In this document: in pieces, positions 14,118 through 62,541 of the stretch
Numbering within the stretch: position 1 is the first letter of the stretch
Layout of the letters: the number at the start of each line of letters is the position of its first letter
Assembly (NCBI GenBank): GCA_027366525.1
Contig: DAHXKG010000003.1
Location: 72,097 to 136,096, forward strand
Origin: a candidate division FCPU426 bacterium
Lineage (GTDB): Bacteria > Oederibacteriota > Muellerivitia > Muellerivitales > DAHXKG01
Length of the DNA stretch: 64,000 nucleotides
Reading direction: 5' to 3'
The notes under the pieces: model-generated
The model's input: the letters and a program-made list of their open reading frames with translations, nothing else
Databases searched by the model: none
What the model was told of the DNA's origin: nothing
Program-made: the position numbers and the translations under genes

Positions 14118-14125
14118 AAATTAGC

Positions 14126-14656: not shown

Positions 14657-14661
14657 ATTTC

Positions 14662-16076: not shown

Positions 16077-17354
16077 ATGTTTCCTTATGATTACAAAGAA
16101 TATTATATCCTCTACGTGGATGATGAAGAAAAAGCCCTTAAATATTTTAAAAGCACATTGGAACATCGATTTAAAATTCTCACTGCGATTAATGCCAACG
16201 AAGGATATAAAATTGTAAAAAAATATCAGCAAGAGATTGCAATTGTTGTAACAGACCAACGCATGCCCGTAGAAAATGGTGTTCAGTTCTTGGAGAAGGT
16301 GAGAATACTTCTTCCTAAAACCGTGCGTATTTTGGTTACCGCTTTTTCAGAACTCGATGTGGCCATTCAAGCCGTAAATACGGGAGCGATCTATAAATAT
16401 GTTTCAAAGCCTTGGAACCTTCCAGAATTAGAAGTCATGTTGATGCGCGGCATGGAATATTTTAAAATTCAAAAAGAGCGCGACGCGTTGTTGAATGAAA
16501 AAATATCAATTTTGAATAACATGTTAATGACGGATCGATTAATTAGCCTTGGATTTCTTGCAACAGGGTTAGGACATCATCTTCGAAATTCGATGGTGGC
16601 TATTAAAACTTTTTTAGACTTAACACCGCTTAAGCTGGAGCAAGAAGTTGTTTCTTTAGATCGAATTCAAAATCCTGATTTTTGGAAAAATTATTACACA
16701 CGGGTTCAGGAACAAATGAATAAAATTACCGAACTACTCAATCAATTAGTTCAGATATCCGAAAAACCGAAAGCCTATTTTCCAGATAAAATTAAATTAG
16801 AAAAAATGGTTAAAAACGCACTCGAGAAATATCAAAAAGAGGCCAGCAAGAAAAACATTACTGTTGAAAATTATGTTACGGATATTGCCCAGGTGCTTCA
16901 GGTGGACCAAATCAAGTTTGAAAGATTTCTAGATCTCCTTTTAGAAGATGAAATTGCTAGTGTCAAAGAAGGTGGATCAATTACGTTAAGATCATTCAAT
17001 TCTGAAAAAAATTCAAATGAAATTATATTGGAAATACAAGACAGTGGGAGTGGTTTCTTGCACCAACGAACGAAGTGGATATTTGATCCATTTTATACGC
17101 GTAATCAAGATCCAAAAAATTGGGGACTGAATCTCATGGCTTGCTTTTTTATTGTTCATCACCATGGTGGTCGGGTGGAAATTTCCGAAGCGAGTGTAAA
17201 GGAAGGCAACATTATCCAGTTTATTTTTCCAGTATGCCCGCCAGAAATTCCAAAAGACGAAGACCAAAAACTCATGAATCGCATTTTATTAAATGAGGAA
17301 CTTTGGGAAAAATTATTGACCGGACATGAAACGGCCATAGAAATTAATTCATAA
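16077..17354 (+). CDS. receiver domain fused to a histidine-kinase-like transmitter (PhcR/PhcQ-like response regulator), paralog of 36989..38257
   Basis: REC motifs (VDDEE, TDQRMP, SKPW); H-box-like GLGHHLRNSM; ATPase-like ILEIQDSGSGF; paralogous alignment with the 36989..38257 product. Confidence 0.7.
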   Translation: MFPYDYKEYYILYVDDEEKALKYFKSTLEHRFKILTAINANEGYKIVKKYQQEIAIVVTDQRMPVENGVQFLEKVRILLPKTVRILVTAFSELDVAIQAVNTGAIYKYVSKPWNLPELEVMLMRGMEYFKIQKERDALLNEKISILNNMLMTDRLISLGFLATGLGHHLRNSMVAIKTFLDLTPLKLEQEVVSLDRIQNPDFWKNYYTRVQEQMNKITELLNQLVQISEKPKAYFPDKIKLEKMVKNALEKYQKEASKKNITVENYVTDIAQVLQVDQIKFERFLDLLLEDEIASVKEGGSITLRSFNSEKNSNEIILEIQDSGSGFLHQRTKWIFDPFYTRNQDPKNWGLNLMACFFIVHHHGGRVEISEASVKEGNIIQFIFPVCPPEIPKDEDQKLMNRILLNEELWEKLLTGHETAIEINS

Positions 17355-27384: not shown

Positions 27385-28776
27385 TCAATTAATATTGAGA
27401 AAGGTCTTAACCTTTGAAGCGGCTAAATAACCAGAAAGGCAAGCACTTTCTATAGTAGCTGGAAGATGCGTTTGAGTCCAATCTCCCGCTAAAAAAATAT
27501 TTTGAAAGGATGTTTCAGAACTGGGCCTTAGCGCATCATTAGTTTGGTTCCAAACAAAGGTAGCGGCCATTTCGCGAGTAACCTTTGAATACAATATTTT
27601 TAAATCAGGGTTAATTTTAAATCGTGAACGTAACACTTTTTCTGCTTCTTGAATCCAAAAAGCATCTGAATTAAGAGTGTCTTGGGAAGACGCGCTTCGA
27701 ACCAGAGATAAGTATTGTTCTTGAGTTTGATAATTCCAATTTTGTGTTTGATTAAATATCCAATCAAAAGGTGAATAAGGCAAACCCAGAAATGGTTCGT
27801 GAAAAATAGCTTGGGATAAGACCAGATGAACGGACATAATGGATGATTTGCCTAAGGATTCAAAATTCAAAGTTCGGATCCACTCTGCATTTAAAGAAAA
27901 TCGATGGATGGAATAAGGAGGAATAGCAAGAATTAAAGCATCTCCGGAAAAGCATTTTTGATTTTTTGAAATCAATTCAAAAGTCTTATTTTGAATTTTG
28001 ATTTCCTGAATTCCTTCGTGATAATGAATCAAGCCATGATTTGATTCGAAAATTTTTTTAAAATTAGGGAAGAAAATTTCACTTAAGGGTTTTGAAAAAA
28101 AAACAAGACGACTATCCATGATCGATTGAAAAAAAGCTTGAGAGAATACTTCTCCTAAGGAACGAATAAGAGCGACTTGGGGTGGTAAATTCAAGATGGA
28201 TTTACACAAGGGATTCCAAAAAAGCTCTTGGGTATTAGGGGACGCCTTTATATAAGACAAAAAATCTTCGACTGTAACAAGATGAGTGGGGAGTGAAAAA
28301 GGTTTCTTTTTAAATCGATGAAGGGATTGAACCAAATTCATTTTATCTTTCCAAGTAAAAGCTTTAGAGTTCCAAAGGCCAAATAAAAGATGAAAGGGTG
28401 CGGGAAGATTGGAGCAGTGTAAAACCTGTTTTTGCTGATTTGGAAGGACCCAGCTTAATTGAAGGGGATGCATCATAGTTAGTTGGGATAGGGCATTTAT
28501 TTTTTTGAAAAGGCGTAAAGTTTCATGATAACACCCCATCATCAGGTGGGGTCCGTTATCGATTGGGAAGGGAAAATTTTGAGTAGGTGGAAAAGAGTAA
28601 AAACGGCCACCGAGCATCCCACGTGATTCGATAAGTTCAACTTGTACATTAGGGCTTTGGAGTTCTAAGGCTGCTGAAGCTCCAGCAAATCCTCCGCCCA
28701 CGATGATAACTTTTTTCATGCCAATAACCTCAGATGGAATTATTTTTCTCGAAGCCAAAGCTTCCAAAGCAAGCAT
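27385..28776 (-). CDS. hpnE: FAD-dependent amine-oxidase-family desaturase, hydroxysqualene dehydroxylase HpnE-like
   Basis: VIIVGGGFAGASAALEL dinucleotide-binding motif; sits directly after two squalene/phytoene-synthase-family genes. Confidence 0.6.
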   Translation of the reverse strand: MLALEALASRKIIPSEVIGMKKVIIVGGGFAGASAALELQSPNVQVELIESRGMLGGRFYSFPPTQNFPFPIDNGPHLMMGCYHETLRLFKKINALSQLTMMHPLQLSWVLPNQQKQVLHCSNLPAPFHLLFGLWNSKAFTWKDKMNLVQSLHRFKKKPFSLPTHLVTVEDFLSYIKASPNTQELFWNPLCKSILNLPPQVALIRSLGEVFSQAFFQSIMDSRLVFFSKPLSEIFFPNFKKIFESNHGLIHYHEGIQEIKIQNKTFELISKNQKCFSGDALILAIPPYSIHRFSLNAEWIRTLNFESLGKSSIMSVHLVLSQAIFHEPFLGLPYSPFDWIFNQTQNWNYQTQEQYLSLVRSASSQDTLNSDAFWIQEAEKVLRSRFKINPDLKILYSKVTREMAATFVWNQTNDALRPSSETSFQNIFLAGDWTQTHLPATIESACLSGYLAASKVKTFLNIN

Positions 28777-29585
28777 TGACTCGTAGCTTGAAAAGTTGAA
28801 TAAATCTTATCAAAAAGAGTCAAGTGAATCGTACCCAAAACGATTTGGTTACAATGGGTGCGAAGCTTTTGATGTAACCGAACATATACGGAAGCAATGG
28901 CTTCAGCCGTCATTAATTGGCTTCGATTGGACTTTGAAAGATATTGTCTAGATTTTTTCAAATAGCTCCAAGCGCGATCCAGCTGATAGTGGAAAAAAGC
29001 CGTGACTTGGGGTGTTGAATTATTAATTTTGTAGGGATCCAGATGAAATCGATGGAAATCGTTCATAGGTAAATATTGGCGATGGAGTGATAAATCTTCT
29101 TTGAAATCTCGAATGATATTGGTCAGTTGCAAAAAAACACCCAAGTTTTTTGCATAATTTTGATGAGCCAGATCTTTAAATCCAAATATAGACATGCTCA
29201 TAAGTCCTGGAGCAGCAGCAACATTAAGTGCATATTGGTAAAGTTGCTTAAACGTTTGAAAGGAAATGGTATAAAGGTCCGCTTCGATGCCCTTTAATAA
29301 ATTTAAAACGTAGAAATGCGATATTTGAAATTCAATAAGAACTGTAGCAAAATCTTTTAAAAAGGGATTAGGGGGCGATCCGTTTAAAGTGGCGATACAA
29401 TCTTTTCTAAATTTTTGAAATTGTCGACGTTTGGTACTTAAAGGCTTGGGAGCATCCGCTATTTCATCCGCCAACCAACAAAATCGGTATAAAATTTCAA
29501 GTGCTTGACGTTGAGAGGGAGGTAATAAAAGCAATGGAAAATAAAAACTCGTTTTTTGTTTTAATGAAGAGTATTTGGGGTTCAC
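28740..29585 (-). CDS. hpnD: squalene/phytoene synthase family, presqualene diphosphate synthase HpnD-like
   Basis: Asp-rich motif WLADEIAD; trans-isoprenyl diphosphate synthase head-to-head fold size; middle gene of the triad. Confidence 0.5.
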   Translation of the reverse strand: MNPKYSSLKQKTSFYFPLLLLPPSQRQALEILYRFCWLADEIADAPKPLSTKRRQFQKFRKDCIATLNGSPPNPFLKDFATVLIEFQISHFYVLNLLKGIEADLYTISFQTFKQLYQYALNVAAAPGLMSMSIFGFKDLAHQNYAKNLGVFLQLTNIIRDFKEDLSLHRQYLPMNDFHRFHLDPYKINNSTPQVTAFFHYQLDRAWSYLKKSRQYLSKSNRSQLMTAEAIASVYVRLHQKLRTHCNQIVLGTIHLTLFDKIYSTFQATSQCLLWKLWLREK

Positions 29586-29599
29586 AAAACCGCCTTAAA

Positions 29600-30478
29600 T
29601 TAACGTAATGATGGATTCGGTGAAAATAACATTCGAGTTAATAGCGCTATTTTTTCATAAACTTTCCAAGTTGGCTGGCTTTGAAAAACATTATACTGCA
29701 TGGCTTCGATTTTTTTTAAAATTCCTAAACCTCCAAAATAAGTTGCCTTGATTTCAAGATGAAGGCGTCCTTTAAGTAAATAGAGGAGTGGAGTTCCCTT
29801 ATTAAAGTAACACGTGGTATAGTTTGCAACATTTTTAACTAAAAGCTGGGTTTGGGAATTAAATGAAAGGGCTAAAAGATCTGGGATTGAAACCTTTGCA
29901 CGTTTTATTTCTTCGAGGGGGTAATAAATGCGGTTATTTTTAATATCACGAGAAGTATCTTGCCAAAAATTGATGAATTGTAATCCGGTACAAATAAAAT
30001 CAGAATAATAGTGTAAAAGGGGATCATGAATATCAAAAATATGAAGCAGTATTTGTCCAATAGGATTAGCACTATGCTCACAGTAAAAATGAAGTTGATT
30101 CCACGTAGTATATCGCTTTTTTTTAAGGTCCATACGAAAGGCTTGGATGAGTTTGAGTGGTAGTTGGATGGGAATTTGATAATGTTTCAAAACGAAAGCA
30201 AAGGCCATCAAAAAGGGATGGGTGGAATGTCCAAGCTGCGCTTGTTTCAAGTTCAGTTCCCATTTTTTGAGTTGTGTTAGTCGCTGGGATGCAAATTGGG
30301 GTTCATCTGCAAAATCATCAGCCGTGCGAGCAAAAGCATAGAGTGCAGAGATAGCCAATCGCTTGGATTGTGGAATAAAAAAAGAGGCCACCGGAAAATT
30401 TTCATAATGTGATCGAGCTAATGATTGACAAGCTTCAAAAGCTGGAACAAGGTGGTTAGGAATGATTTGATTATTCAA
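29600..30478 (-). CDS. hpnC: squalene/phytoene synthase family, hydroxysqualene synthase HpnC-like
   Basis: YENFPVASFF and ARTADDFADE motifs; first gene of the triad. Confidence 0.5.
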   Translation of the reverse strand: MNNQIIPNHLVPAFEACQSLARSHYENFPVASFFIPQSKRLAISALYAFARTADDFADEPQFASQRLTQLKKWELNLKQAQLGHSTHPFLMAFAFVLKHYQIPIQLPLKLIQAFRMDLKKKRYTTWNQLHFYCEHSANPIGQILLHIFDIHDPLLHYYSDFICTGLQFINFWQDTSRDIKNNRIYYPLEEIKRAKVSIPDLLALSFNSQTQLLVKNVANYTTCYFNKGTPLLYLLKGRLHLEIKATYFGGLGILKKIEAMQYNVFQSQPTWKVYEKIALLTRMLFSPNPSLR

Positions 30479-33634: not shown

Positions 33635-33711
33635 GGACGTTTAGCTCAGTCGGTTAGAGCGTCGCGTTCACATCGCGAAGGTCACTGGTTCGAGTCCAGT
33701 AACGTCCACCA
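33635..33711 (+). tRNA. tRNA-Val (anticodon CAC), CCA encoded
   Basis: cloverleaf by eye: acceptor GGACGTT/AACGTCC, D-arm AGCTCAGTCGGTTAGAGC, anticodon stem TCGCG/CGCGA with loop TTCACAT, T-arm GGTTCGAGTCC, 3' ACCA. Confidence 0.85.
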
Positions 33712-36639: not shown

Positions 36640-36988
36640 ATTTTGAAACCAGTGCAGAAATGGTGTAAATGCCTATTTTACTTGGATTAAATTAGGATGT
36701 CAAAAAGCATTCTGCTGTTAAAAACGAATAAATCCGGTAATATTAAGAGATAACCGGATATCCATTAATCCATGGAAGGATCCGGTCAGTGATGGAACAA
36801 CGAAAAACTTTGTGGAATTGTTAAGAGGTTTTCTCTTTTGCTGAAGCCGTTTTGTGCTTTCTAGACGTCCTCAAAACCTTTCCTGCAAATAAGGAAGCAC
36901 GGTCTCTCGACCGAGGATTTCTCTAACCAATACGTCTAGATAATCTTCATTAAAATCCATTGAAATCTCGATGGATTTTAAAATCTTT

Positions 36989-38257
36989 TCAAAAATTTTT
37001 CAACATAAGCTTTTCAGTTAAAGGATGATTGATTAAGAAATTGGACAAGTCACTTTCTTCAATTAATGAAGAGTGTGAATCAGGATGAAGAGATAATGAA
37101 ATGACAAATTTTAAAATAGATTTAGATGACGGAGAGATAACGGTTAGAAAGCCACTATGATGATAAAGAATGAGCAGAAAGCTTAACAAATAAGCACCTT
37201 GATCATTGGGCATGGTGGGTAAGTTTAACGAAGGGTTTAAAATTGCTAACCACGCCTCTTGAAATAAGTTAAGCCCGTTGAATAATACTTCGATTTGAAC
37301 TTGCTGAGTCGACAGAGTCGGGTCAAAGGACAAAGAAGTTAATTGAATCGATAAAGGTTGATCAGATATTTGTAGAGCCTCTTTTAAGAGAAATTCAAAG
37401 AAGGAGTCAAACCGATTTTGGTCGACGGGGAGAGGAGGAAGATCCTTTGAAATTAAGTTATCGACACGTATAGATTTTTTATTGAGGTCTGTTTTGAATT
37501 TTTGGATCGATGAATTCAAAAGCGCTTCAAGGGATAAGGTGTTTTGAAAGACAGGTGGCTTGGAAGGAATGACAGGCCAAAAAGGATTAAGAATATCCAT
37601 AACCCGGTGCATTTTAGTTTGGATAGTTTGATAATAATTATTCCAAAATTGTGAAGAATAAAAAATGTTGTTAGGGGGAGGATCATTTTCTACCAATTCA
37701 TTTGGATTAAATTGGAGAAAAGTTTGAATGGCACGAGTGGCATGCAAGATGTAGGGATTACACACTAAAGAAAAAAGACCCAGACTAAGGATGCGGTCAG
37801 TTAACATAATATAGTGGAGTGAAGAAATTTTTTCTTTTAATAGAGAATCTCGTTCCTGTTGAATTGAAAAAAAATCTAGACTTCGCTTCAGTGTCATGGA
37901 TAAATGATTAAAATCCCAGGGTTTAGTGACATATTTGTAAATTTGCCCACTATTGACTGCTTGAATAGCGGATTCAAGGTCAGCATAGGCGGTTATAAGA
38001 ATTCGAACAATTTGTGGATGAGCCCGTCGAACTCGTTCAAGGAAATCCACCCCTTTTTCTCCGGGCATGACTTGATCGGTAATAATAATTCCGATTTCTT
38101 GTTCACACTCTTGGATAATATTCCACCCTTCTTGAGTTGAAGAGGCAGTGAAAATTGTAAATTGCTCCTCAAAGGTTTTCCTGAAATATTTTAAAGCTAG
38201 AATTTCATCATCAATATACAAGATTTTATATTGTTTGTAATTCGTAAGTGATTCCAT
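36989..38257 (-). CDS. PhcR-like response regulator: receiver domain fused to a degenerate histidine-kinase-like domain
   Basis: REC motifs (IDDEI, TDQVMP, TKPW); following domain aligns with the 16077..17354 product but lacks G1/G2 ATP-binding boxes; last gene of the methyltransferase-kinase-regulator operon. Confidence 0.6.
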   Translation of the reverse strand: MESLTNYKQYKILYIDDEILALKYFRKTFEEQFTIFTASSTQEGWNIIQECEQEIGIIITDQVMPGEKGVDFLERVRRAHPQIVRILITAYADLESAIQAVNSGQIYKYVTKPWDFNHLSMTLKRSLDFFSIQQERDSLLKEKISSLHYIMLTDRILSLGLFSLVCNPYILHATRAIQTFLQFNPNELVENDPPPNNIFYSSQFWNNYYQTIQTKMHRVMDILNPFWPVIPSKPPVFQNTLSLEALLNSSIQKFKTDLNKKSIRVDNLISKDLPPLPVDQNRFDSFFEFLLKEALQISDQPLSIQLTSLSFDPTLSTQQVQIEVLFNGLNLFQEAWLAILNPSLNLPTMPNDQGAYLLSFLLILYHHSGFLTVISPSSKSILKFVISLSLHPDSHSSLIEESDLSNFLINHPLTEKLMLKNF

Positions 38258-38283
38258 ATGGCCTCCAAAGTAGCTATTATTTT

Positions 38284-40998
38284 TTAAACCGACTTAGGTA
38301 ACTGAATCATGCCGGGGAGTTGAATAGTAAATTCTGTAAATTTTCCTGATTCACTCTGAACTGTAATCCGGCCATTTTGATCTTTGATAATTTGATAACA
38401 AATACTTAAGCCCAAACCCAATCCTTCGCCCACATCCTTGGTGGTAAAAAATGGATCAAAAACTTTTGAAATATTTTCTGGAGCAATACCGGTTCCATTG
38501 TCTCGAATATGTAGAAATATAAAGTTGTTTTCAAAACGACTTTGAATTTGAAGAGTTGGTTTTTCATCGGAATTAAAGTTTTTATTTTTCATAGCAGTCA
38601 AAGCATTTTGAATTAAATTTAATAATACTTGAATAATTCGGTTTTTATTGACTAGAACAAAATGTTCAGATGGAATTTGAACATCAATTTGAAATAGCTC
38701 AGGAATCTCATGTTGAATAAAGGTAAGTGTTGTAGAAATCAAGGGATGAACTTGAAACCAATCTTTTCCCATTGCATTCGGATGTGCAAAGCTTTTAAGG
38801 TTAGAAATGATTTTTTGAACTCGATCTAAGCCTTCTTCCATATCTTCAATCATATCAAGTATTTGATGCTTATCAGATTGTGTAGGGGAACCATATTTTT
38901 GTTTTAAAAGGTAGAGGGCTTGTAAAACATAATTTAAAGGATTGTTAATTTCATGAATGATGCCAGCGCTAAGAGTTCCTAAGGACGCCATTTTTTCATG
39001 TTGGATCAGTTGACTTTGAGTTTGTTTTAAAAGTTCAAGCGTTTCTTGAGCTTTTTGGTTCATTAATTCCAGATCGGCTTTTTGTTGTAAAATCTTTTTT
39101 TGAAATTCATGCGATTGTAAAATATTTTTAATTCTGATTTTTAATTCTAAGATAGAAAATGGTTTGGTTAAAAAATCAGTCGCTCCAGCGTTTAATGCTT
39201 CAATTTTCATTTCATCATCGGCTCGAGCAGTTAACATAATTACAGGAATGGTTTCTGTGTTTTTATGTTGAAAAAGTTCATGGCATACATCAATGCCATT
39301 TTTCCCAGGCAGCATCATGTCCAGGAGAATAATTTCTGGAGAATTTTGGATAGCAAGATGGATACCTTGATGGCCATCATTTGCTTCTAAGATTTTAAAT
39401 TGAGACTTGAGAATTAATCTTAAAAATTCTCGCATATCGGGTTCATCGTCAATAATGAGAATAAGCGGCTTTGTGGATCGCTCTTGGGTGGCCAATGACT
39501 CTGACGGCGATGGAAATAATGAAGAAAAATGCAGAATACGGTTATGTAAGTCCATATTTAATTGTTGGAGCGGCAAAGGCGACAAATCTTTTTTGTTTTT
39601 CAACTCTGGAGTTGTACTGTTTAAGGGGGAGGGGTGGCATGGCAGGGAAACCGTAATTTGTGTTTTTTGATTTAAAACTGATTCGACTTGAATCGTTCCA
39701 TGTTGAGCATCGACGAGTTCTTTGACGATCGAAAGGCCTAAGCCGGTTCCTGAATTTTGGTAGCTAGTATTGGGATCTGCTTTCCAAAATCGATCAAATA
39801 TTTTAGAAATATTTTCGGGTGCGATGCCTTGACCAGTATCTTCAACGGACAAAATAAAGTTTTGATTTTCGTATCGGCTGATTACGGTGATGCGTCCTTC
39901 TGGCGGCGTGAATTTAATGGAATTGAAAACAAGATTGAGAATTATCTTTTCCAGTTGGATTTGATCCATTTCAATGAGGATTAAGGAGGGATCAAATTGA
40001 ACGTCTAACATAATATTTTTGGATTCAGCGATTGTGTTCAATGAGAGTAACAGTCCACGTATGAAGGTTGGAATATCTGTCGGGGTGGGATTGAATGGCA
40101 TTTTTTGGGATTCGAGTTTAATCAGATCAAGAATATCATTGATATATCGTAGGAGGCGTTGTGCATTAACACTCATCAAGTTCAAGATTTGATTGGTTTT
40201 TTCATCAAATTCTTTGGATTTTTGAATTCGCAAATCTTCCAAAGGTGAAATTAAAAGTGTCAATGGGGTACGGAGCTCATGGCTGACATTGGCAAAAAAA
40301 TTACTTTTCAAGCGATCCAGCTCTAAAAGTTGCTGATACGATTTTTCCAATAATTTTTGACTTTGATCCAATTTATATCGAAGAGAAAATTCTTGGAATC
40401 TTAACCGGCTTTGAAAATAACTGGCAATAATTACAATAACATCGGTTAAAATCAGGAAGTATAAATTATTAATAAAGATATTAACGCTGATATTGCCAGG
40501 ATGAAAAAAGCAGGCCATTGCATAAATCAAAATGACACAAGAGCCAACAATTAGATTTTCAAAAAAGGTCCATGGGAAAATGAGCCCCACACCTAAAAGT
40601 ACTAAATTTAATCCCGCGTAATAGGGCGAGGCAGCTCCTTGGCTCATATAGATCATCCAAGCAATATCGGCAATGGGCAATAAGGGAAGCATCAAACTCC
40701 AAAACCGATAATGTTTGTAAAAAAAATCAGTTTGACAGAGTATCAAAAAAAGCAAGGCAAGGAATGCCGTAAGCAAACGCGAAATTAAGAATATCTTAAA
40801 CTGATCAGGATAAATGACGTAATCCAAAACGAGGCCAAACGGAACCAAAATAATAATTAAGAGGGCTTCTAAGCGAATGTTTTTTAATCGAATTTGTTTA
40901 TCATAATCAGCATAAGCGAATTCAATATCGTGAATGGAAATGTTGGAAAAAGGTTCAGTCATGATCGGATTTTCGTATTTCCATGAAGATATTAACAC
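38284..40998 (-). CDS. polytopic hybrid sensor histidine kinase with HK-REC-HK architecture
   Basis: about 6 TM N-terminal sensor; H-box SHELRTPL plus HATPase (DTGQGI, GTGLGLSI); receiver (IIDDEPD, LLDMMLP, TKPF); second H-box IIHEINNPL plus second HATPase (DNGTGI, GLGLGLSI); probable start at MTEPF (40962). Confidence 0.85.
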   Translation of the reverse strand: MLISSWKYENPIMTEPFSNISIHDIEFAYADYDKQIRLKNIRLEALLIIILVPFGLVLDYVIYPDQFKIFLISRLLTAFLALLFLILCQTDFFYKHYRFWSLMLPLLPIADIAWMIYMSQGAASPYYAGLNLVLLGVGLIFPWTFFENLIVGSCVILIYAMACFFHPGNISVNIFINNLYFLILTDVIVIIASYFQSRLRFQEFSLRYKLDQSQKLLEKSYQQLLELDRLKSNFFANVSHELRTPLTLLISPLEDLRIQKSKEFDEKTNQILNLMSVNAQRLLRYINDILDLIKLESQKMPFNPTPTDIPTFIRGLLLSLNTIAESKNIMLDVQFDPSLILIEMDQIQLEKIILNLVFNSIKFTPPEGRITVISRYENQNFILSVEDTGQGIAPENISKIFDRFWKADPNTSYQNSGTGLGLSIVKELVDAQHGTIQVESVLNQKTQITVSLPCHPSPLNSTTPELKNKKDLSPLPLQQLNMDLHNRILHFSSLFPSPSESLATQERSTKPLILIIDDEPDMREFLRLILKSQFKILEANDGHQGIHLAIQNSPEIILLDMMLPGKNGIDVCHELFQHKNTETIPVIMLTARADDEMKIEALNAGATDFLTKPFSILELKIRIKNILQSHEFQKKILQQKADLELMNQKAQETLELLKQTQSQLIQHEKMASLGTLSAGIIHEINNPLNYVLQALYLLKQKYGSPTQSDKHQILDMIEDMEEGLDRVQKIISNLKSFAHPNAMGKDWFQVHPLISTTLTFIQHEIPELFQIDVQIPSEHFVLVNKNRIIQVLLNLIQNALTAMKNKNFNSDEKPTLQIQSRFENNFIFLHIRDNGTGIAPENISKVFDPFFTTKDVGEGLGLGLSICYQIIKDQNGRITVQSESGKFTEFTIQLPGMIQLPKSV

Positions 40999-42367
40999 CC
41001 GTTGAATCGGATAAGACGTTCACTTGTTGTGGCTTGATACAATCGGGTGCAAGGGCGGATAATTGTTGTTCATTGCGATAAATTAAAAACCATTCGGCAA
41101 AATACTCCATAATGCTTTTAGAAGGATTGGATGTATGTACGTTGGTTACAACCAGCAAGCCGTTTGGAGCGAGCTGAGTATAAAAAAAATTCATTAACTG
41201 TTTGCAAATTTTATCCGACAAATAATCAAAGAGTCCGGCACAATAAATGAGATCATACGAATTCGTGGTTATTTCATTTGATTTAAAACTTTCTTTTAAG
41301 AGTTGCGTTACTGATTTTTTGATGAAGTGAATGTCGGACTGAAAATGATTTTGCGTTTTCAATGCACGAACCAAATTTTGAACATAATTGAGAGTTTCAT
41401 CATTGAAATCAACAAGCGTAAATTCGGCATCTCGTACCGAAGATTGAGAGAGAAAATGCTGAACTTCCTGAGCAGGACCACATCCTAGGTTAAAGACTCG
41501 AATACGTTTCTTTTTTAGCGATAGCTTATACGTCTCATTTTCAATTTGTTGAATTAAATATTGAATACGATTTCGGTGAGCTTCAGCTGGTGGTGTTTTC
41601 CAGAAAAAAAAATTTATCATTTTTGAGAAAAGCGAAGATCCAATAAAAGGATTACCTAAAATCATGCGAACCATTTCATAGTCTCCGGCATATCCTAGCG
41701 GTTTATGAAAAATGCGATGCATAAAGGGGGAACAAAGGATTAATGAATGAAGTTGACGTTGGGCATAAATTCTGTGGATGGATTGAAGTTCGGGTTGAAT
41801 AATTTGTGTGATTTTTTCAAAACGACTAAAAAGGTGATAGGTAGTTTCTAAAAACGGTTTTTCTAATTTTTGAATCGTTTCCTGCTCCAATTGGGGCTGA
41901 AGTTTGGGGGAATTTGTTTGTAGTTGAAATTCAATTTGTTCTAGCCACTGTCTTAGTTCTACTAACAGAACATAGATATCGGCAATAATCACCTTGAATT
42001 CAGGAATAATAGTATTAGTTTTTTCAAATTCTTTTAAGAAATGGTCGAACTCAAGTTCTATTTGATATTTTGGATGTGTAAAAAAAAAATCGATATTAAG
42101 CCATGAATTTTCTAAAGTCGCTTCGCAAATCAAAACGATGCCTGTATTGACCAGATTACTGACCGTGGCTCGGCCTGAGTAAAGAATTTGTTCTCCCAAA
42201 ATAATTTGAAATTCGGTAAGAACTTCAGACAGTTGAATGACGCTATAAATATTATAAATTTCAAAAACAATTTGATATCTGGTTAAATGCAATGAGGTCG
42301 CTTGAAATTTAATTCCTTGACTGTTTTTCCCAATAACAAATGTATTCTTTCCAAGTGTGGAAATCAT
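40955..42367 (-). CDS. class I SAM-dependent methyltransferase with large N-terminal extension (PhcB-like architecture)
   Basis: motif I RVFNLGCGPAQE in the C-terminal half; 470 aa, versus about 467 aa recalled for Ralstonia PhcB; first gene of the operon, 8-nt overlap with the kinase gene. Confidence 0.6.
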   Translation of the reverse strand: MISTLGKNTFVIGKNSQGIKFQATSLHLTRYQIVFEIYNIYSVIQLSEVLTEFQIILGEQILYSGRATVSNLVNTGIVLICEATLENSWLNIDFFFTHPKYQIELEFDHFLKEFEKTNTIIPEFKVIIADIYVLLVELRQWLEQIEFQLQTNSPKLQPQLEQETIQKLEKPFLETTYHLFSRFEKITQIIQPELQSIHRIYAQRQLHSLILCSPFMHRIFHKPLGYAGDYEMVRMILGNPFIGSSLFSKMINFFFWKTPPAEAHRNRIQYLIQQIENETYKLSLKKKRIRVFNLGCGPAQEVQHFLSQSSVRDAEFTLVDFNDETLNYVQNLVRALKTQNHFQSDIHFIKKSVTQLLKESFKSNEITTNSYDLIYCAGLFDYLSDKICKQLMNFFYTQLAPNGLLVVTNVHTSNPSKSIMEYFAEWFLIYRNEQQLSALAPDCIKPQQVNVLSDSTGVNIFMEIRKSDHD

Positions 42368-42823
42368 AAAATTTTTAGGTACCTTGAAATTTATAATAAA
42401 TAATTTATAGACTTATTATACTCGTAAGCAGCATTGCATAGAAAAATGTAAGTAAAAAAAAGATTAATAAAAGTGTTTAAATTTTGTCCGAAATTATTAA
42501 AAGCAAATTGAGAGTGAATCGATTCAGAGAGCATGAAGTAAAAAATTTTAGTAGAGGGAGTGATGCAGTCTGCTCAATTGAGTTCGATCCGAAGTGATAT
42601 TTGTCTAAAATGTTTATAATTCCAAATGATGGATAAGCGATGGAGTAATACAAATGCTTATTTGATAAATGGATATAAAATAAATGCTTTTTTTACCTTT
42701 TAAAAAGACAACAATAAAGTGGGCCATTTATCAAAGAGCGTCCTCTTGACTCTCATGGTAAAACCAAGCATTATATAGTTAGTACTAGGTGGCTTAAGAT
42801 ATTTTTTTAAGGAGATATATGTT

Positions 42824-53292: not shown

Positions 53293-54000
53293 TCAAAAAG
53301 GCAAAAGAACCCTGCGGTCTAACGTAGCAATGACCGCAGGTTTTTTTTGATATAAACCCGTCATGGATTTTTCAAATCGGATTTTTAACTTTCGGTGGAA
53401 TCGCGGTGTTGATATTAAAAGTTTTCCAGTTGTGTTTTTAGATAAGTAAAGATTCTTTTTCAATCGAATGGTAAACAGGGTTTTAAATGAAGTGTCTTTT
53501 GGAAAAGGTGCTTGAGATAGATTAAGGGCCAGCGATTTCGTTCCATATCGCGCAATCCACGAAGCGGAATCTTTGGGATGAAGAAAATTATGAATAGTTC
53601 CCGCTAGACAATCCGTGTGATTAACGATTGCGTACAGCTTACAGTTAGAAGTGACTAATTTTTTACGCAGAAGATGTCGAAAGGCCACGCGTAATTGATC
53701 CCAATATCGGAAAACAAGATCTTCAAACTGTTCGACCCAAACTTTAATTTTGGGTTCAGCCGTGATCCATCCCTTGGCATAGTTATCATATCCCGCCGGA
53801 TCCAAATGATGTTCATCAATAATGATTTGATGTGCTTTACTGGATATATAGATATGATCCTGCAGGTCAACCAAAAATTTTTGCTCTTGAGTTAATATAT
53901 TTCCCATGAATCTATTATATCCTAAAGACTCATAAAAATTGAGTTTTTTATAAAAGGGGGTTTTCAGAGTGTGTGAGAAGTTATAGAATTTATGAAGCAA
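53293..54000 (-). CDS. hypothetical protein (235 aa), unknown function
   Basis: ORF only; conserved-looking His/Cys (NHTDCLAGTIHNFLHP); divergent from the NrtR-like regulator. Confidence 0.35.
   Translation of the reverse strand: MLHKFYNFSHTLKTPFYKKLNFYESLGYNRFMGNILTQEQKFLVDLQDHIYISSKAHQIIIDEHHLDPAGYDNYAKGWITAEPKIKVWVEQFEDLVFRYWDQLRVAFRHLLRKKLVTSNCKLYAIVNHTDCLAGTIHNFLHPKDSASWIARYGTKSLALNLSQAPFPKDTSFKTLFTIRLKKNLYLSKNTTGKLLISTPRFHRKLKIRFEKSMTGLYQKKPAVIATLDRRVLLPF
53311..53348. terminator. bidirectional rho-independent terminator
   Basis: 9-bp stem cctgcggtc/gaccgcagg, 12-nt loop, T8 on plus strand and A-rich tract on the other side; the hairpin also encodes the last 15 aa of the convergent minus-strand ORF. 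Confidence 0.7.
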
Positions 54001-54690
54001 AGTGGAAAGAGAAAAATGAATTTGCTTAATCCTAAAATGGCGGTTGCAGTTGATTTAGTTGTATTTACAGTTGCGGCACGATCGCTGCAAGTATTATTGA
54101 CGCAGCGGCAAGAAGAACCGTTCAAAAATCTTCGGGCGCTCCCCGCCTCGATTATCCATCTGAGTGAAACATTAGACGAAGCAGCTCGGCGTATTCTGCG
54201 GATGATTGCCAAAAGTGAAAATGTTTATTTAGAACAACTGTATTCGTTTAGTCATCCGCGCCGCGATCCCCGGGGGCGTGTGGTGACCGTGGCTTATTTT
54301 GCCTTAGTTAAAGCTGAAAAAGTGGCTTTAATTCCCCAATCAAGCGCAATCTGGTATCCAATCGATGCATTGGAAAAACTTGCATTTGATCACCAAGAAA
54401 TTATTCAATATGCCCTAGAACGATTAAGAAATAAATTAGAGTACACTACGGCGGCGTTTCAATTGCTATCGCAGCGTTTTACATTATCGGAACTCCAAGG
54501 TATATATGAAATTGTGTTGGGAAAAAAAATTGATAAACGCAATTTTAGAAAAAAACTTAAAGCCCTAAATATTTTGAAAGATTGCGGAATGGTTAAGCGA
54601 GAAGGCAATCATCGTCCAGCGCGACTTTATACTTTTTCAGAATTCCGTTTTATTAAGCTGAGAGATCGAGGGATTCTTTTTCCTTTTTAG
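53992..54690 (+). CDS. Nudix-related transcriptional regulator (degenerate Nudix domain plus C-terminal winged-helix, NrtR-like)
   Basis: Nudix fold with degenerate box SETLDEAARRILRMIA (REE..G lost); basic C-terminal wHTH-like segment. Confidence 0.45.
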   Translation: MKQSGKRKMNLLNPKMAVAVDLVVFTVAARSLQVLLTQRQEEPFKNLRALPASIIHLSETLDEAARRILRMIAKSENVYLEQLYSFSHPRRDPRGRVVTVAYFALVKAEKVALIPQSSAIWYPIDALEKLAFDHQEIIQYALERLRNKLEYTTAAFQLLSQRFTLSELQGIYEIVLGKKIDKRNFRKKLKALNILKDCGMVKREGNHRPARLYTFSEFRFIKLRDRGILFPF

Positions 54691-58697: not shown

Positions 58698-60527
58698 TCA
58701 TCGAATCCAATGAGGGAGAGCAAGAGTGAGGAAGGGGACAAAAGTAATCAAAAGCACCATAATGTGTAAGATAATATACATTGGTAAAACCGATTGATAT
58801 ACTTCAGACATTGGCTTTTTAAATCGATAAGAGGACAGAAATAAATTAAGCCCTAAAGGTGGAGCAAGAAATCCAAGTTCCATATTTGCTAAAAAAATGA
58901 TGCCGAGATGAACAGGATTAATGTGAAAGGCAGCTCCTAATGGTACTAAGAGCGGAACGACTACCACAATGGCTGCAAAAATTTCTAAAAGACTTCCAAC
59001 AATGATTAAAAGAATATTAAGAATAATTAAAAAAAGCCAAGTGGAATGAATGGACGATTGAACCCAATGAACTAAGTGATTCGGAATGCGTGCAGCAACC
59101 ATGTAATTCGTAAAACCAAGTGAAACGCCTAAAATCAATAAAACGCCTCCAACTAAAATGCCGCATTCAGCAATCACCCGAAAAAGATGTTGATTAAACT
59201 TTAGATTTCTGTAAATCAATAATTCAATGAGAAATGTATAAAGTGCAGTAAGCGCTGCGGATTCGACAAGCGTTGTTTTAATAACAAATAAAAAAATAAA
59301 AATAAGGAAAGGGAGGAAAAGCTCGAATTTAGCATCATTAATTGCTGCAAAAGTTTCTGACCATTGAAAAGTATGACGTTGAACTTCGAGTTTGGAGCCC
59401 TTATGAATACCCCACCACATCGTAAGAATTAAAAGCAAAACCCCAGGAATAAGACCACCTAAAAAAAGTTGATTAATAGGGGTATGTGACACAATGCCAT
59501 ATAGAATGACCGGGAGGCTAGGCGGAAAAAGCATGCCTAAGGAGCCTGCAGAAGTTAAAAGTCCCAGCGAGTCCCGTTCACTATACTTTTCTGCCAGTAA
59601 AATAGGCATAAGGAGGCCGCCTAGAGCAAGAATGGTGACGCCGGATCCACCCGTTAACGCAGTAAAGAAAGCACAGGCCAATGCGGTAACAATAGCCGAG
59701 CCTCCTCGAAACGAACCAAATAAAGACTGAAAAACACGCAGGAGCCGTTTGGAAGCGCCACCTTCGGCTAATAGATAGCCTGTTAATGTAAAAAGGGGGA
59801 TGGTAGGAATTGTTGGAGAAACAACCATCTGGGATGTTTCAGCGGGGATTGAATCAATGGGAACACTCGAATTCCAAATTAATAGGAGTGCGGCTCCGCC
59901 AAGGGCAATAAAAATAGGTGCTCCCAATAGGATGGAGATTAAAAGCAGCCCAAATCCGAGAATGATTAAAAATGAAGGGGGATGATGAATTAAGGCAGAT
60001 CCACTAAAGAGGCAAGCCGAAAGAATTAGTGTACCAAATCGGCTTTTCCAGGATGAAGCAGAATGAAAAATAAGACGAAAAAAAATCAAGAAAAAACCGA
60101 TGGGTAAAATGGCTTCAATGATCCAGGCAGCAATGCCACAAACATGATCCCCACCTACGCTTGCATTAATTGCCACTAGTTGATAACTGGCTAAGGCTAA
60201 ATATAATGTAATGGCTCCAGCAAACGCGGACGTAAAAATATGAACGATTGATTTAAAGCGTTCGGGAATCAACCAAGAAGAACTTGAAAGGGTTAAAAGC
60301 TTTTTCTCCCGAGCCGCAATAGCGCCACCTAACATCATGATAACTAACGTTAGATATTGAACAAGTACCAGAGAATCTGGAATTAAATAAACTTTGAAAA
60401 CACGAGAAATAATATCAAAGATTGGCAGGCCAATCATGAGAATGAAAAAACATCCCAGGATAATGTCTTCTAGTTGATGCCAGAATGAACGTGGTTGTAA
60501 AGAAACTAACTCACTCGACTCCATCAA
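58698..60527 (-). CDS. TRAP transporter fused small/large permease (DctQM-type)
   Basis: 609 aa polytopic protein, length and hydropathy of fused DctQ-DctM; directly downstream of a DctP-family SBP gene. Confidence 0.75.
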   Translation of the reverse strand: MMESSELVSLQPRSFWHQLEDIILGCFFILMIGLPIFDIISRVFKVYLIPDSLVLVQYLTLVIMMLGGAIAAREKKLLTLSSSSWLIPERFKSIVHIFTSAFAGAITLYLALASYQLVAINASVGGDHVCGIAAWIIEAILPIGFFLIFFRLIFHSASSWKSRFGTLILSACLFSGSALIHHPPSFLIILGFGLLLISILLGAPIFIALGGAALLLIWNSSVPIDSIPAETSQMVVSPTIPTIPLFTLTGYLLAEGGASKRLLRVFQSLFGSFRGGSAIVTALACAFFTALTGGSGVTILALGGLLMPILLAEKYSERDSLGLLTSAGSLGMLFPPSLPVILYGIVSHTPINQLFLGGLIPGVLLLILTMWWGIHKGSKLEVQRHTFQWSETFAAINDAKFELFLPFLIFIFLFVIKTTLVESAALTALYTFLIELLIYRNLKFNQHLFRVIAECGILVGGVLLILGVSLGFTNYMVAARIPNHLVHWVQSSIHSTWLFLIILNILLIIVGSLLEIFAAIVVVVPLLVPLGAAFHINPVHLGIIFLANMELGFLAPPLGLNLFLSSYRFKKPMSEVYQSVLPMYIILHIMVLLITFVPFLTLALPHWIR

Positions 60528-60553
60528 AGCTCCTTAAAGTATACATCCCATTT

Positions 60554-61582
60554 TTAGTTTATAGGAGTAGGATGAAGTTTTCGATATTGGGTTCGATAAA
60601 TAATGGCTTTTTGAAAAGCTTGCACTGGGAAAAGTTGACCGATCATTTTAGGGTAAGCTTTCAGAAATAGTGATTCCCAAGACGATTTTTGAGCTGCAGT
60701 CAAATGGACCACTTTTAACCCTTTCTTTTTCATCACATGAATGGCTTCATGATCTTCCTTTTTAATGCTATTGATAAACTGGATTCCGGCTTGGTGTGCT
60801 GCATGTAGAATAGCCGGTCGATCTTCTGGCGGAATAGAATCCCATGCTTTTAAAGTCATGATGGTAGCGCCGACTAAAGGGGCAAATTTTAAATCCGTCA
60901 TGTAATGTGCTAAGGCAAACCACTGAAAAGAAAGTGCAGTTAAAGGAGTGGTATCAAAGGAATTAATTAATCCAGTTTGAAGGCCAGGCATAATATCGGT
61001 TGCCGCCAATGGAACCGGGTGAAATCCAGCAGATTGCCAAAGGGATAGAGCGCGATTATCACCCGCCCAAATAAAAAAATTCATTTTTTTAAGATCGGCA
61101 GGTGTTGCAATTGGTTTTTTTCCAAAAAAACGAATCCAACCGGCATTGCCCCAGTTTAAAATAACAAACCCTTTTTTTAAAAAGCGTTTTTTCAAATAGG
61201 GCTTCATGTGGTTTAAAACAAAGTTTAGTTCACTATATGACCGGTACATCATTGGTGTTGCAAGTACAAAGGCAGAACGATCGATACTGGACAAACCGGC
61301 AACCGTCAAAAGACACGCTTGAATTTGACCGATGCGCATTTTCTGAATCATATCGGATTCATCGCCTAGAATGCCGCTGGGATAAACAATCAGGCGAACT
61401 CCTCCATCGGGGGCTTGGGCCCATTTTTGACCCATTTGTTTAAGGGTTAGATACCAAGACGATCCTTGTGGGGCAAGAGTTCCTAGGCGGATAATCGTTT
61501 TTGAAAATCCTAGTGTCGATAACGATAAAATGCCTATAAAAGATAATTGAAAAAACCAAAAATGCTTTATTTTTAATAACAC
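60554..61582 (-). CDS. TRAP transporter substrate-binding protein (DctP family)
   Basis: signal peptide; TLAPQGSSWY motif region typical of DctP SBPs. Confidence 0.8.
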   Translation of the reverse strand: MLLKIKHFWFFQLSFIGILSLSTLGFSKTIIRLGTLAPQGSSWYLTLKQMGQKWAQAPDGGVRLIVYPSGILGDESDMIQKMRIGQIQACLLTVAGLSSIDRSAFVLATPMMYRSYSELNFVLNHMKPYLKKRFLKKGFVILNWGNAGWIRFFGKKPIATPADLKKMNFFIWAGDNRALSLWQSAGFHPVPLAATDIMPGLQTGLINSFDTTPLTALSFQWFALAHYMTDLKFAPLVGATIMTLKAWDSIPPEDRPAILHAAHQAGIQFINSIKKEDHEAIHVMKKKGLKVVHLTAAQKSSWESLFLKAYPKMIGQLFPVQAFQKAIIYRTQYRKLHPTPIN

Positions 61583-61617
61583 GGCAGACTCCTTAATAAT
61601 GATTTGAAATTAAAATT

Positions 61618-62541
61618 TTATTGAACAAACAAATTTGTTTGTTGACGTAAAAGCCAACGAGCACGCTTTTGCATAATTAAATTCATGAGGCGCCATTTGG
61701 GTTTTTTATTGACGTTAATTTGAAGGGCATGTTTTAACATGGATTTGAATTCCTTCAAGTTTTGTTCTTGAACATCAACACTTTCAGCAAAATTGACATA
61801 AGGCGAGGCGCTTAACCCATGGGTCAATTTAATAGCTTCTTTTAAATATTTTCTGGCTTTTTGAGGCGAACCTCCCAAGGCTTGGGGTAAACTGCCAACT
61901 TCGGTAATTAAAAAAGATTGAATAGTACCATCATCAAAATTTGGATTTAAGGTAAAAGCCCTTTGCACGAGCATTTTCGCTAAAGGAATATCTGCAAGCA
62001 ATCGAGGATCATTTTGGCCCAGAGAAATCGCTCCCATCCAAGCGACACCGGTCCAATATAAAAGTGCAACATCGTGAGGACGCATAGCTTTTAATGCTTT
62101 GAGAGGATTTTTTTTGAATTCTTTGATAAAGGAAGGATGCGAGACGTTTAATCCACGAAATCCATAGTTTCGAGCGCGCAAATAAAGATTTTTTGCTTCG
62201 TGTCGAAGCGCCAAGGATTTGTGGTAATTCCGATTCATCAGAAAATCAGATTTTTGTTCGACAAATCCATAAGCATATTCTGTGAACGCCTTACAAAGTG
62301 TTGTAAGCAAACCATGATTTTTAGGCACACTTTGCAGGACGCTTTCCATTAATTTTAGGCTGAAAGGTAGTGCTTTAGCAATTAAACGCGGATCATTGTC
62401 GGTGGCAAAAGTGCTGGTACCGTGGGAAAGCGAATTGGCTAATCCCGACATTACGAGACTATTCAACGAACAGCCAAATTGAAAAAGAATTGTAAGGCTT
62501 AATCCCATCAGTATAAATTTAAATAATCGTAGTCGCTTCAT
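61618..62541 (-). CDS. TRAP-associated TPR-like lipoprotein (TatT-like T-component)
   Basis: lipobox FQFGCSL; helical repeat body; position upstream of dctP-dctQM as in TPAT-type TRAP systems. Confidence 0.4.
   Translation of the reverse strand: MKRLRLFKFILMGLSLTILFQFGCSLNSLVMSGLANSLSHGTSTFATDNDPRLIAKALPFSLKLMESVLQSVPKNHGLLTTLCKAFTEYAYGFVEQKSDFLMNRNYHKSLALRHEAKNLYLRARNYGFRGLNVSHPSFIKEFKKNPLKALKAMRPHDVALLYWTGVAWMGAISLGQNDPRLLADIPLAKMLVQRAFTLNPNFDDGTIQSFLITEVGSLPQALGGSPQKARKYLKEAIKLTHGLSASPYVNFAESVDVQEQNLKEFKSMLKHALQINVNKKPKWRLMNLIMQKRARWLLRQQTNLFVQ

Follow-up and report, generated by a model that had tools for sequence, protein, structure and literature searches.

The 64-kb window analyzed here (64,000 nucleotides of contig DAHXKG010000003.1 from a candidate division FCPU426 bacterium) contains, on its minus strand, three adjacent genes that encode a methyltransferase, a membrane sensor kinase, and a receiver protein. 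These genes probably form a Phc-type small-molecule signaling cassette, as a long-kinase variant of the PhcB/PhcS/PhcR-Q system. In the known Phc system, PhcB makes the methyl esters of 3-hydroxymyristic or 3-hydroxypalmitic acid (3-OH-MAME and 3-OH-PAME), which are sensed via PhcS (PMC8578825, PMC13320629), and PhcQ acts by binding PhcA (PMC13320629). Judged by their sequences, the three proteins of the window are true but distant Phc homologues, and the order and architecture of their genes are conserved across dozens of unrelated contigs.

The products of a Cupriavidus phcBSRQ locus (L032; 463, 443, 381, and 332 amino acids [aa]) served as Phc comparators, as a proxy for the Ralstonia solanacearum proteins. 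Their lengths match those published for PhcB (464 to 468 aa), PhcR (368 to 374 aa), and PhcQ (336 to 337 aa) (PMC8578825), and Phc has been reported to be functional in Cupriavidus taiwanensis (PMC10653808). A second comparator was a plasmid operon of Paraburkholderia graminis that encodes a methyltransferase, a kinase, and two receiver proteins. No Ralstonia sequence was found among the 27 loci that a wobble-relaxed published phcS primer (PMC8578825, Table S6) matched in genome contigs, nor among the best 120 matches of a search with the Paraburkholderia homologue, in which Cupriavidus, Massilia, and Janthinobacterium were present. The primer scan incidentally matched a short-form phcB-phcS-phcR-phcQ-like operon in a metagenome-assembled genome (MAG) named Proteobacteria bacterium SKS3.bin83 (L024, 1207 to 5970).

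The cassette was initially described, in a first-pass annotation made from the letters alone, as three tightly coupled minus-strand genes, and the coordinates of the open reading frames (ORFs) agree (Table 1). The methyltransferase stop and the kinase start overlap by 8 nt when the kinase begins at its ATG, and a gap of 26 nt separates the kinase from the regulator. An alternative GTG start at 40998 (38284 to 40998) would lengthen the kinase by 12 residues; the 892-aa ATG form is the choice of public gene callers. A gap of 349 nt follows the regulator before nadE, and the operon thus consists of three genes, with no separate phcR and phcQ. The GC content of the cassette region is 35 to 36%.

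Table 1. Coordinates of the cassette, its domains, and associated features in the window
Feature	Positions	Strand	Description	Basis
PhcB-family methyltransferase gene	40955-42367	-	470 aa	ORF
Membrane sensor kinase gene	38284-40962	-	892 aa, ATG start	ORF
MASE8-type membrane sensor domain	40363-40914	-	Kinase aa 17-200, about six helices	PhcS homology, precomputed PF20968, hydropathy
Module absent from PhcS	39088-40320	-	PhoR/EnvZ-type core 1 (~aa 215-455) and receiver (~aa 500-625)	Pfam
PhcS-like kinase core 2	38308-39000	-	~aa 655-885	PhcS homology
Linked regulator gene	36989-38257	-	422 aa	ORF
Presumed promoter region, AT rich	42368-42823	-	5' of methyltransferase, divergent from Fe-S assembly gene	Sequence reading
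Hairpin, possible operon terminator	36950-36981	.	14-bp stem, 8 nt past regulator stop	Terminator scan
Unlinked regulator paralogue	16077-17354	+	425 aa, receiver-DHp-CA	Pfam Response_reg and HATPase_c

The methyltransferase belongs to the PhcB family

The first-pass annotation had placed the S-adenosylmethionine (SAM) motif of this 470-aa protein in its C-terminal half, behind an extension of roughly 280 aa. Pfam and motif positions agree: the motif VFNLGCGPAQE lies at aa 291 to 301, the families Methyltransf_31, Methyltransf_12, and Methyltransf_25 match within aa 280 to 420 with starts at aa 280 to 294, and about 280 aa precede the catalytic domain. A comparison with PhcB, which had been proposed as a check, identified the relatives of the protein as the PhcB family over the N-terminal region as well, since the alignment with Cupriavidus PhcB (463 aa) extends over aa 14 to 463, N-terminal extension included, with 36% identity and an E value of 1e-112. 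Identity to the Paraburkholderia plasmid homologue is 36.9% over 96% of the length. Across 69 family members, taken from Burkholderiales and the window clade, 70 alignment columns are invariant, and the window protein keeps all 70. In IMG, the protein is named [quoted passage not shown] which is the KEGG definition of PhcB.

The N-terminal 285 aa alone retrieved 1,124 cluster representatives (50% identity) at an E value of ≤1e-3, 593 at ≤1e-10, and 156 at ≤1e-30. Pfam, even at an E value of ≤10, gave nothing meaningful for the N-terminal 289 aa, and a sequence search of the Protein Data Bank with the methyltransferase gave matches at chance level only. Structure prediction of the N-terminal part was another check suggested at the outset: the AlphaFold model (predicted local distance difference test score [pLDDT] of 86.5) shows a small beta-barrel at aa 9 to 85 and a helical region at aa 92 to 283, followed by a Rossmann methyltransferase domain at aa 289 to 465. 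Its best matches among solved structures are 3ocj (an uncharacterized Bordetella protein), cyclopropane fatty-acid synthase, and small-molecule O-methyltransferases, and not CheR.

These data bear on the alternative, which we regard as highly improbable, that the enzyme does not synthesize a signal but methylates proteins and thereby adapts the kinase pathway in a CheR-like way. Such a role would agree with the tight translational coupling of methyltransferase and kinase, and the Pfam family CheR (PF01739) does match the catalytic domain weakly (E value of 5e-4), with faint CheR matches in some relatives. However, the score of 20 bits falls short of the 27-bit gathering cutoff and is exceeded by those of generic small-molecule methyltransferase families. 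Furthermore, the best structural matches are cyclopropane fatty-acid synthase and other methyltransferases of small molecules and lipids, the full-length homology is to PhcB, and no methyl-accepting or CheB-like partner is linked.

The sensor kinase is a PhcS-like protein with an inserted module

The kinase has the architecture MASE8 sensor, kinase core 1, receiver, and kinase core 2. A Pfam scan located HisKA (aa 231 to 297), HATPase_c (aa 345 to 454), and Response_reg (aa 513 to 623), followed by a second HisKA/HATPase_c core at about aa 658 to 896, and the precomputed Pfam annotation of the 892-aa form lists MASE8, HisKA, HATPase_c, Response_reg, and HATPase_c. Both cores keep all H, N, G1, F, and G2 motifs, and the internal receiver keeps its Asp. 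The H-box of core 1 is SHELRTP at position 227; in core 2, the H-box HEINNP is found at 670, the N box at 782, G1 at 821, F at 835, and G2 at 847. The word "hybrid" that had been applied to this kinase gives no more than a hint of its architecture, in which two full transmitter cores flank the internal receiver.

The proposal of a six-helix membrane sensor is reasonable: a hydropathy scan gave five clear helices (at about aa 33 to 51, 57 to 75, 113 to 131, 137 to 155, and 162 to 182), and a weaker sixth one (about aa 86 to 105) was read by eye from the sequence, outside the scan output. Kinase aa 17 to 200 are 35% identical to aa 7 to 194 of Cupriavidus PhcS (E value of 4e-24), and precomputed annotation assigns PF20968 (MASE8) to both proteins. 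Our local Pfam scan, even at an E value of ≤10, did not report MASE8 on the membrane region, unlike the precomputed annotation, in which the match carries no "weak" mark; a bias filter acting on membrane sequence may be the cause.

The core of Cupriavidus PhcS is 32 to 34% identical to core 2 (E values of 2e-49 and 3e-52) versus 23% to core 1 (E value of 4e-11), and PhcS aligns to the two ends of the window kinase only. Since PhcS matches the sensor and core 2 and matches core 1 poorly, the kinase reads as a PhcS into which a HisKA-HATPase-receiver module has been inserted.

The linked regulator combines an intact receiver with a degenerate kinase-like half

The third protein of the cassette consists of an intact receiver (aa 11 to 125; Pfam Response_reg at aa 12 to 121) and a degenerate half (about aa 141 to 400) related to the dimerization and histidine phosphotransfer (DHp) and catalytic and ATP-binding (CA) domains of kinases, that is, a pseudokinase. 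Pfam gave Response_reg only, with no HATPase_c match, and nothing meaningful for the C-terminal half at an E value of ≤10. Beyond the receiver, NCBIfam gave one weak match, to the histidine kinase model PRK09303 (aa 122 to 348, E value of 2.7e-7, 29.9 bits versus a cutoff of 342). The AlphaFold model (pLDDT of 71) consists of the receiver, a long helical hairpin of lower score, and an alpha/beta domain.

In BLASTP comparisons, the receiver and first helix of the regulator align with Cupriavidus PhcQ at 40% identity (E value of 1e-39), and its receiver is 31% identical to that of PhcR (E value of 9e-25). PhcQ is a receiver protein that lacks both a DNA-binding and a catalytic output, and the regulator agrees with this type. 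We built a family profile from 63 relatives, which matched PhcQ over the receiver and first DHp-like helix (E value of 4e-37), past which the C-terminal parts do not align, and matched PhcR in 349 columns over receiver, DHp, and CA (E value of 2e-33, 19% identity). The family also groups with PhcQ in a neighbor-joining tree rooted on PhcR. Being closer to PhcQ in sequence and collinear with PhcR across receiver, DHp, and CA, the regulator family is thus PhcR-like in layout and PhcQ-like in sequence. The resemblance to PhcR that had been noted at first holds for the domain order, while the receiver is closer to that of PhcQ. Database relatives of the regulator are about 420 aa long and about 40% identical over their full length, with precomputed matches to Response_reg and HATPase_c and often to HisKA; IMG names them "probable response regulator PhcQ," and NCBI names them hybrid kinases/response regulators.

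The linked regulator keeps 62 of the 79 receiver positions conserved at ≥90% in the family, including every phospho-acceptor residue, compared with 24 of 49 family-conserved positions for DHp and 21 of 47 for CA. In the alignment, the H-box His, the G1 box, and the F box are lost: GLSHHIRNS is replaced by VCNPYILH (HH to PY), DNGPG by FNGLN, and FDPF by LNPS. A domain-by-domain comparison gave 18 to 34% identity to relatives for the C-terminal half versus 31 to 61% for the other parts of the cassette. The first-pass description of a receiver joined to a kinase-like half without G-boxes is therefore accurate for this gene copy but applies neither to PhcR, which has G1 and G2, nor to the regulator family, and the idea that a pseudokinase output is a PhcR-like trait proved wrong, as Cupriavidus PhcR has HisKA and HATPase_c matches.

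An intact regulator paralogue is encoded elsewhere in the window

A second member of the regulator family is encoded 20 kb from the methyltransferase, kinase, and degenerate regulator genes, in the opposite orientation. It is 35% identical to the linked regulator and 50% identical to a cassette-linked relative (P0244), and it keeps the H-box (GLGHHLRNS), G1 (DSGSG), and F (FDPF) motifs. The IMG name of this paralogue is "probable response regulator PhcQ," whereas that of the linked copy is no more specific than "CheY-like." The two copies are separated in the regulator tree, where a long basal branch leads to the linked one. Upstream of the paralogue, genes for a Peptidase_M3 protein and a PD-(D/E)XK nuclease (12357 to 15615) are 52 to 53% identical to genes of a related locus (L118, 1950 to 7749), in which the PD-(D/E)XK gene is immediately 5' of the methyltransferase gene; the same adjacency is seen in L044 (590 to 1633). 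The intact paralogue is thus found at the position of the cassette in relatives and the cassette 20 kb away, which implies a duplication and a rearrangement or splitting of the cassette in this genome. The genome holds an "active-looking plus degenerate" pair of regulators that parallels PhcR and PhcQ.

It could be argued that the cassette is a partly decayed duplicate or relocated copy, that the unlinked paralogue is the functional one, and that the 422-aa gene is becoming a pseudogene. In line with this, the near-invariant HH, DNGPG, and FDPF are missing from the linked copy, which keeps less than half of the conserved DHp/CA positions and branches as a long basal lineage, and a search of 5.8 billion proteins gave no relative that exceeds 41% identity; moreover, the PhcQ name in IMG is on the paralogue and not on the linked copy, and the intact copy is beside the PD-(D/E)XK gene, where L118 and L044 carry the cassette. 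We nevertheless consider decay improbable for several reasons. (i) The frame is open over the full 422 aa. (ii) The receiver keeps all invariant phospho-acceptor residues and more than three-quarters of its conserved positions (62/79). (iii) The 26-nt spacing after the kinase is preserved. (iv) A folded alpha/beta domain is still predicted for the CA-like region, at a pLDDT of about 60 to 87. (v) PhcQ shows that loss of such motifs is compatible with function (PMC13320629).

The cassette is conserved in related loci

A metagenome scan with the methyltransferase alignment yielded 80 loci with homologues 43 to 51% identical, which were scored by ORF calling and matching to domain segments of the window proteins. 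A MASE8 kinase gene is next on the same strand in 72 of the 73 loci with at least 300 nt of downstream sequence. Where there is room for the whole second gene, the long sensor-core 1-receiver-core 2 kinase was found in 36 of 37 loci, and all 37 loci with room for a third gene carry a receiver-DHp-CA gene at that place. Synteny in relatives had been proposed as a check on the system, and the three genes are indeed co-conserved in order and strand in these assessable loci. Further contigs with the cassette (L034 to L036) are an 842-kb contig, a Verrucomicrobiales MAG, and a MAG labeled Deltaproteobacteria, and the closest relatives of the window methyltransferase also carry it (e.g., L117 and L119). 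About four-fifths of the named-phylum matches to the methyltransferase and regulator are from Verrucomicrobiota, with one each labeled Chloroflexi, Deltaproteobacteria, and Patescibacteria. The GC content of the 80 loci ranges from 44 to 67%, and that of the window cassette is lower than all of them.

The flanks of some related loci contain one or more of three gene sets. (i) A gene for a FadL/TodX outer-membrane channel is located within 2.5 kb 5' of the methyltransferase in 21 of the 54 related loci with enough upstream sequence. (ii) Directly 5' of the methyltransferase, L034 (1179 to 6952) carries genes for a ketosynthase, a ketosynthase-like protein, an acyl carrier protein, a FabA/ApeI-like dehydratase, a ketoreductase, a phosphopantetheinyl transferase, and a flavin adenine dinucleotide (FAD) oxidoreductase; L061 (2587 to 6910) has most of this acyl-synthesis set at the same side, without the FAD oxidoreductase. 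(iii) In L034 (12474 to 15434) and L117 (13351 to 16599), genes for a sigma-54-type response regulator, a 365- to 376-aa kinase, and a short receiver are found 3' of the cassette, a set that could be its transcriptional output branch. Taken together, the FadL, acyl-synthesis, and sigma-54 links are consistent with a ligand that is hydrophobic and acyl derived and with a transcriptional relay downstream.

Individual loci illustrate or vary these arrangements. Examples of FadL/TodX linkage are L035 (5438 to 6751; Pfam Toluene_X), L087, L094, L116, and L101. Of the genes of set ii, L066 (26 to 3871) has those for the ketoreductase, phosphopantetheinyl transferase, and FAD oxidoreductase only. Of set iii, L119 (9193 to 11003) has the kinase gene and a 194-aa gene with no Pfam match, without the sigma-54 regulator. 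The cassette genes themselves vary in L108 (2475 to 3872), which encodes a short PhcS-like kinase with the sensor and core 2 only, in L060 (249 to 2918), where a second long kinase is encoded 5' of the methyltransferase, and in L111 (2628 to 3293), where the regulator comes straight after the methyltransferase. An additional receiver-kinase gene of about 385 to 430 aa is present beside the cassette in L035 (12462 to 13619), L037 (12450 to 13727), and L053 (2341 to 3543) and on its 5' side in L062, L070, and L074; its product most resembles the receiver and core 2 of the long kinase and shows weak collinearity with PhcR.

Proposed mechanism and its alternatives

In the signaling circuit that we propose, the PhcB homologue would transfer a methyl group from SAM to the carboxyl group of a lipid-like acid. 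If PhcB is taken as the model, this acid would be a 3-hydroxy fatty acid and the product a methyl ester that is hydrophobic and diffusible. In the membrane, the MASE8 sensor of the kinase would detect this ester, and the signal would modulate core 1 (His227), which would phosphorylate the internal receiver and thereby gate the PhcS-like core 2 (His670). From core 2, phosphate would then go to Asp61 in the linked regulator and, probably, to the intact paralogue as well. Without its His, G1, and F motifs, the linked regulator may serve as an adaptor that binds a partner protein under the control of phosphorylation, in the way that PhcQ binds PhcA. A kinase or phosphatase role like that of PhcR could have been retained by the intact paralogue. 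The cassette itself encodes no transcriptional output. In the Phc system, output is through the LysR-type regulator PhcA; no LysR-family match was found in the 64-kb window, either among ORFs of at least 180 aa outside the cassette neighborhood or in the precomputed Pfam annotation of the genes called in the neighborhood.

The same homology evidence would apply equally to a private loop, in which the methyltransferase and kinase sense envelope or lipid metabolism and a methyl ester or another methylated metabolite reports the fatty-acid or membrane state within the producing cell, the double kinase integrating a second input. The extra kinase-receiver module suggests that more than one input is integrated, and in this genome the cassette is located amid housekeeping genes with no export or uptake gene linked. 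Against this, the only characterized relatives are extracellular autoinducer systems (PMC8578825, PMC10653808), and the linkage of a FadL-type channel in 21 of 54 relatives fits traffic across the envelope. We therefore regard a purely private loop as unlikely and favor a Phc-type signaling cassette.

Several points weigh against the latter reading. (i) An identity of 36% to PhcB leaves the substrate of the methyltransferase unfixed, and its chemistry is inferred. (ii) Quorum sensing is defined by dependence on cell density, which is a pure inference for this cassette. (iii) Cupriavidus orthologues stood in for the experimentally studied R. solanacearum proteins in the comparison. (iv) No FadL-like gene, acyl-synthesis cluster, LysR/PhcA-like gene, or DNA-binding partner was found near the cassette in the window. 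(v) The regulator family lacks the N-box Asn, having Asp or Glu instead, and has a single-Gly G2, so that even its "intact" members may not be kinases. (vi) The linked regulator is the fastest-diverging part of the cassette (best non-self match of 41% versus 57 to 58% for the methyltransferase), and this fast divergence could be decay rather than a new role.

Genomic context of the cassette

The neighbors of the cassette in the window are housekeeping genes, namely, those for the glycine cleavage system, lipoate ligase, NadE, and QueD. Consensus promoter matches between positions 36500 and 43000 were no more frequent than in shuffled sequence, and the promoter region listed in Table 1 is only presumed. 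Likewise, the total number of terminator-like sites was not above the shuffled expectation, and the hairpin past the regulator is thus weak evidence of a terminator.

The hpnCDE and TatT-TRAP (tripartite ATP-independent periplasmic) context mentioned in the first-pass annotation was located as well. Two squalene/phytoene synthase-family genes and an amine-oxidase-type gene form an hpnCDE-like set at 27385 to 30478 (minus strand), and a TAtT gene is accompanied by fused DctQM and DctP TRAP transporter genes at 58698 to 62541 (minus strand). Elsewhere on the plus strand, a gene for a TraG/TrwB-type type IV secretion coupling protein (7990 to 9768), which may be the remnant of a conjugative element, is found amid housekeeping genes, and an NrtR-type Nudix/winged-helix regulator is encoded at 53992 to 54690. 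The single match of an Rfam scan of the 64 kb is a tRNA gene (33635 to 33708, plus strand).

Distribution and significance

The literature describes Phc quorum sensing as a speciality of one plant-pathogen group and its betaproteobacterial kin, and the one systematic survey, published in 2023 and restricted to Pseudomonadota, found the phc cluster confined to Betaproteobacteria (PMC10653808). In a 2026 review, Phc is still treated as a system of Ralstonia, and in the searchable literature we found no paper that links phcB to Verrucomicrobia or metagenomic lineages. The first-pass statement that the family is described almost only in Burkholderiaceae needs amending, since only the literature is limited to Betaproteobacteria (PMC10653808); in the databases the family is not uncommon beyond Burkholderiaceae, with 593 clusters at an E value of ≤1e-10 for the N-terminal region alone. 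Of the two options that it offered, the data favor a distant, undescribed lineage of the system.

Part of this is already known, in that automated annotation in IMG and KEGG gives PhcB and PhcQ names to cassette proteins. What appears to be new is the long-kinase three-gene Phc-like cassette outside Betaproteobacteria, of which the window contains an unusually low-GC instance with an altered regulator. Tentatively, we suggest that Phc-type signaling is not peculiar to Ralstonia, Cupriavidus, and Betaproteobacteria and that the cassettes represent an older or laterally spread branch of it in many environmental bacteria, mainly Verrucomicrobiota, in which the methyltransferase is PhcB-like, the MASE8 protein is a "double kinase," and their partner is receiver-kinase-like. 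This branch might use hydrophobic methyl-ester autoinducers, possibly with lineage-specific acyl chains supplied by linked synthases, and the PhcR/PhcQ-style split between an active and a degenerate regulator may have arisen independently in the genome studied here.

If the cassettes do make and sense methyl esters, this signaling class extends to abundant, poorly cultured phyla of soil and freshwater, such as Verrucomicrobiota. To our knowledge, almost no autoinducer systems have been characterized in such phyla. The window kinase would be a natural model for the wiring of two transmitter cores and an internal receiver. In addition, with intact and degenerate regulator paralogues that mirror PhcR and PhcQ in one genome, the window offers a small evolutionary case study.

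Comparison with known systems

Among NCBIfam models, the best-scoring one for the window kinase is that of the Leptospira LvrA-type hybrid kinase (NF047465), which aligns as one stretch over core 1, receiver, and core 2 (query 206 to 895, model 177 to 817). Membership in this family was ruled out, as the score is 286 bits versus a cutoff of 1,200. The N-terminal sensor of LvrA is unlike that of the window kinase, and we know of no PhcB-type methyltransferase linked to the LvrA system.

The Phc system (phcBSRQ) shares with the window cassette the gene order methyltransferase, MASE8 kinase, and receiver protein. PhcB is collinear over its full length with the window methyltransferase (~36%), the sensor and single core of PhcS are homologous to parts of the window kinase (~35%), and neither cassette encodes a DNA-binding domain. 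The PhcBSR-like gene order and architectures that were proposed at first are thus homologous and in the same order, but PhcS is not simply reproduced, since the window kinase has 892 aa versus 443 aa, with the HisKA-HATPase-receiver module inserted. The window has three genes versus four in Phc, and its one regulator blends PhcQ-like sequence with a PhcR-like layout, whereas Phc has separate PhcR and PhcQ proteins. Unlike PhcR, with its HisKA and HATPase_c, the linked regulator of the window lacks the His, G1, and F motifs. Finally, the window cassette, with its GC content of 35 to 36%, is from a genome outside Burkholderiales.

The long Phc-like cassettes of metagenomes and MAGs are identical to the window cassette in three-gene order, strand, and domain architecture, with methyltransferases 43 to 58% identical and kinase domains 31 to 57% identical. 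Some of them are flanked by FadL-type channel, acyl-synthesis, or sigma-54 regulator/kinase/receiver genes, which the window lacks. Their regulator keeps the near-invariant GLSHHIRNS, DNGPG, and FDPF that the linked copy of the window has lost, and in the window, unlike in these cassettes, the intact regulator is encoded at an unlinked position.

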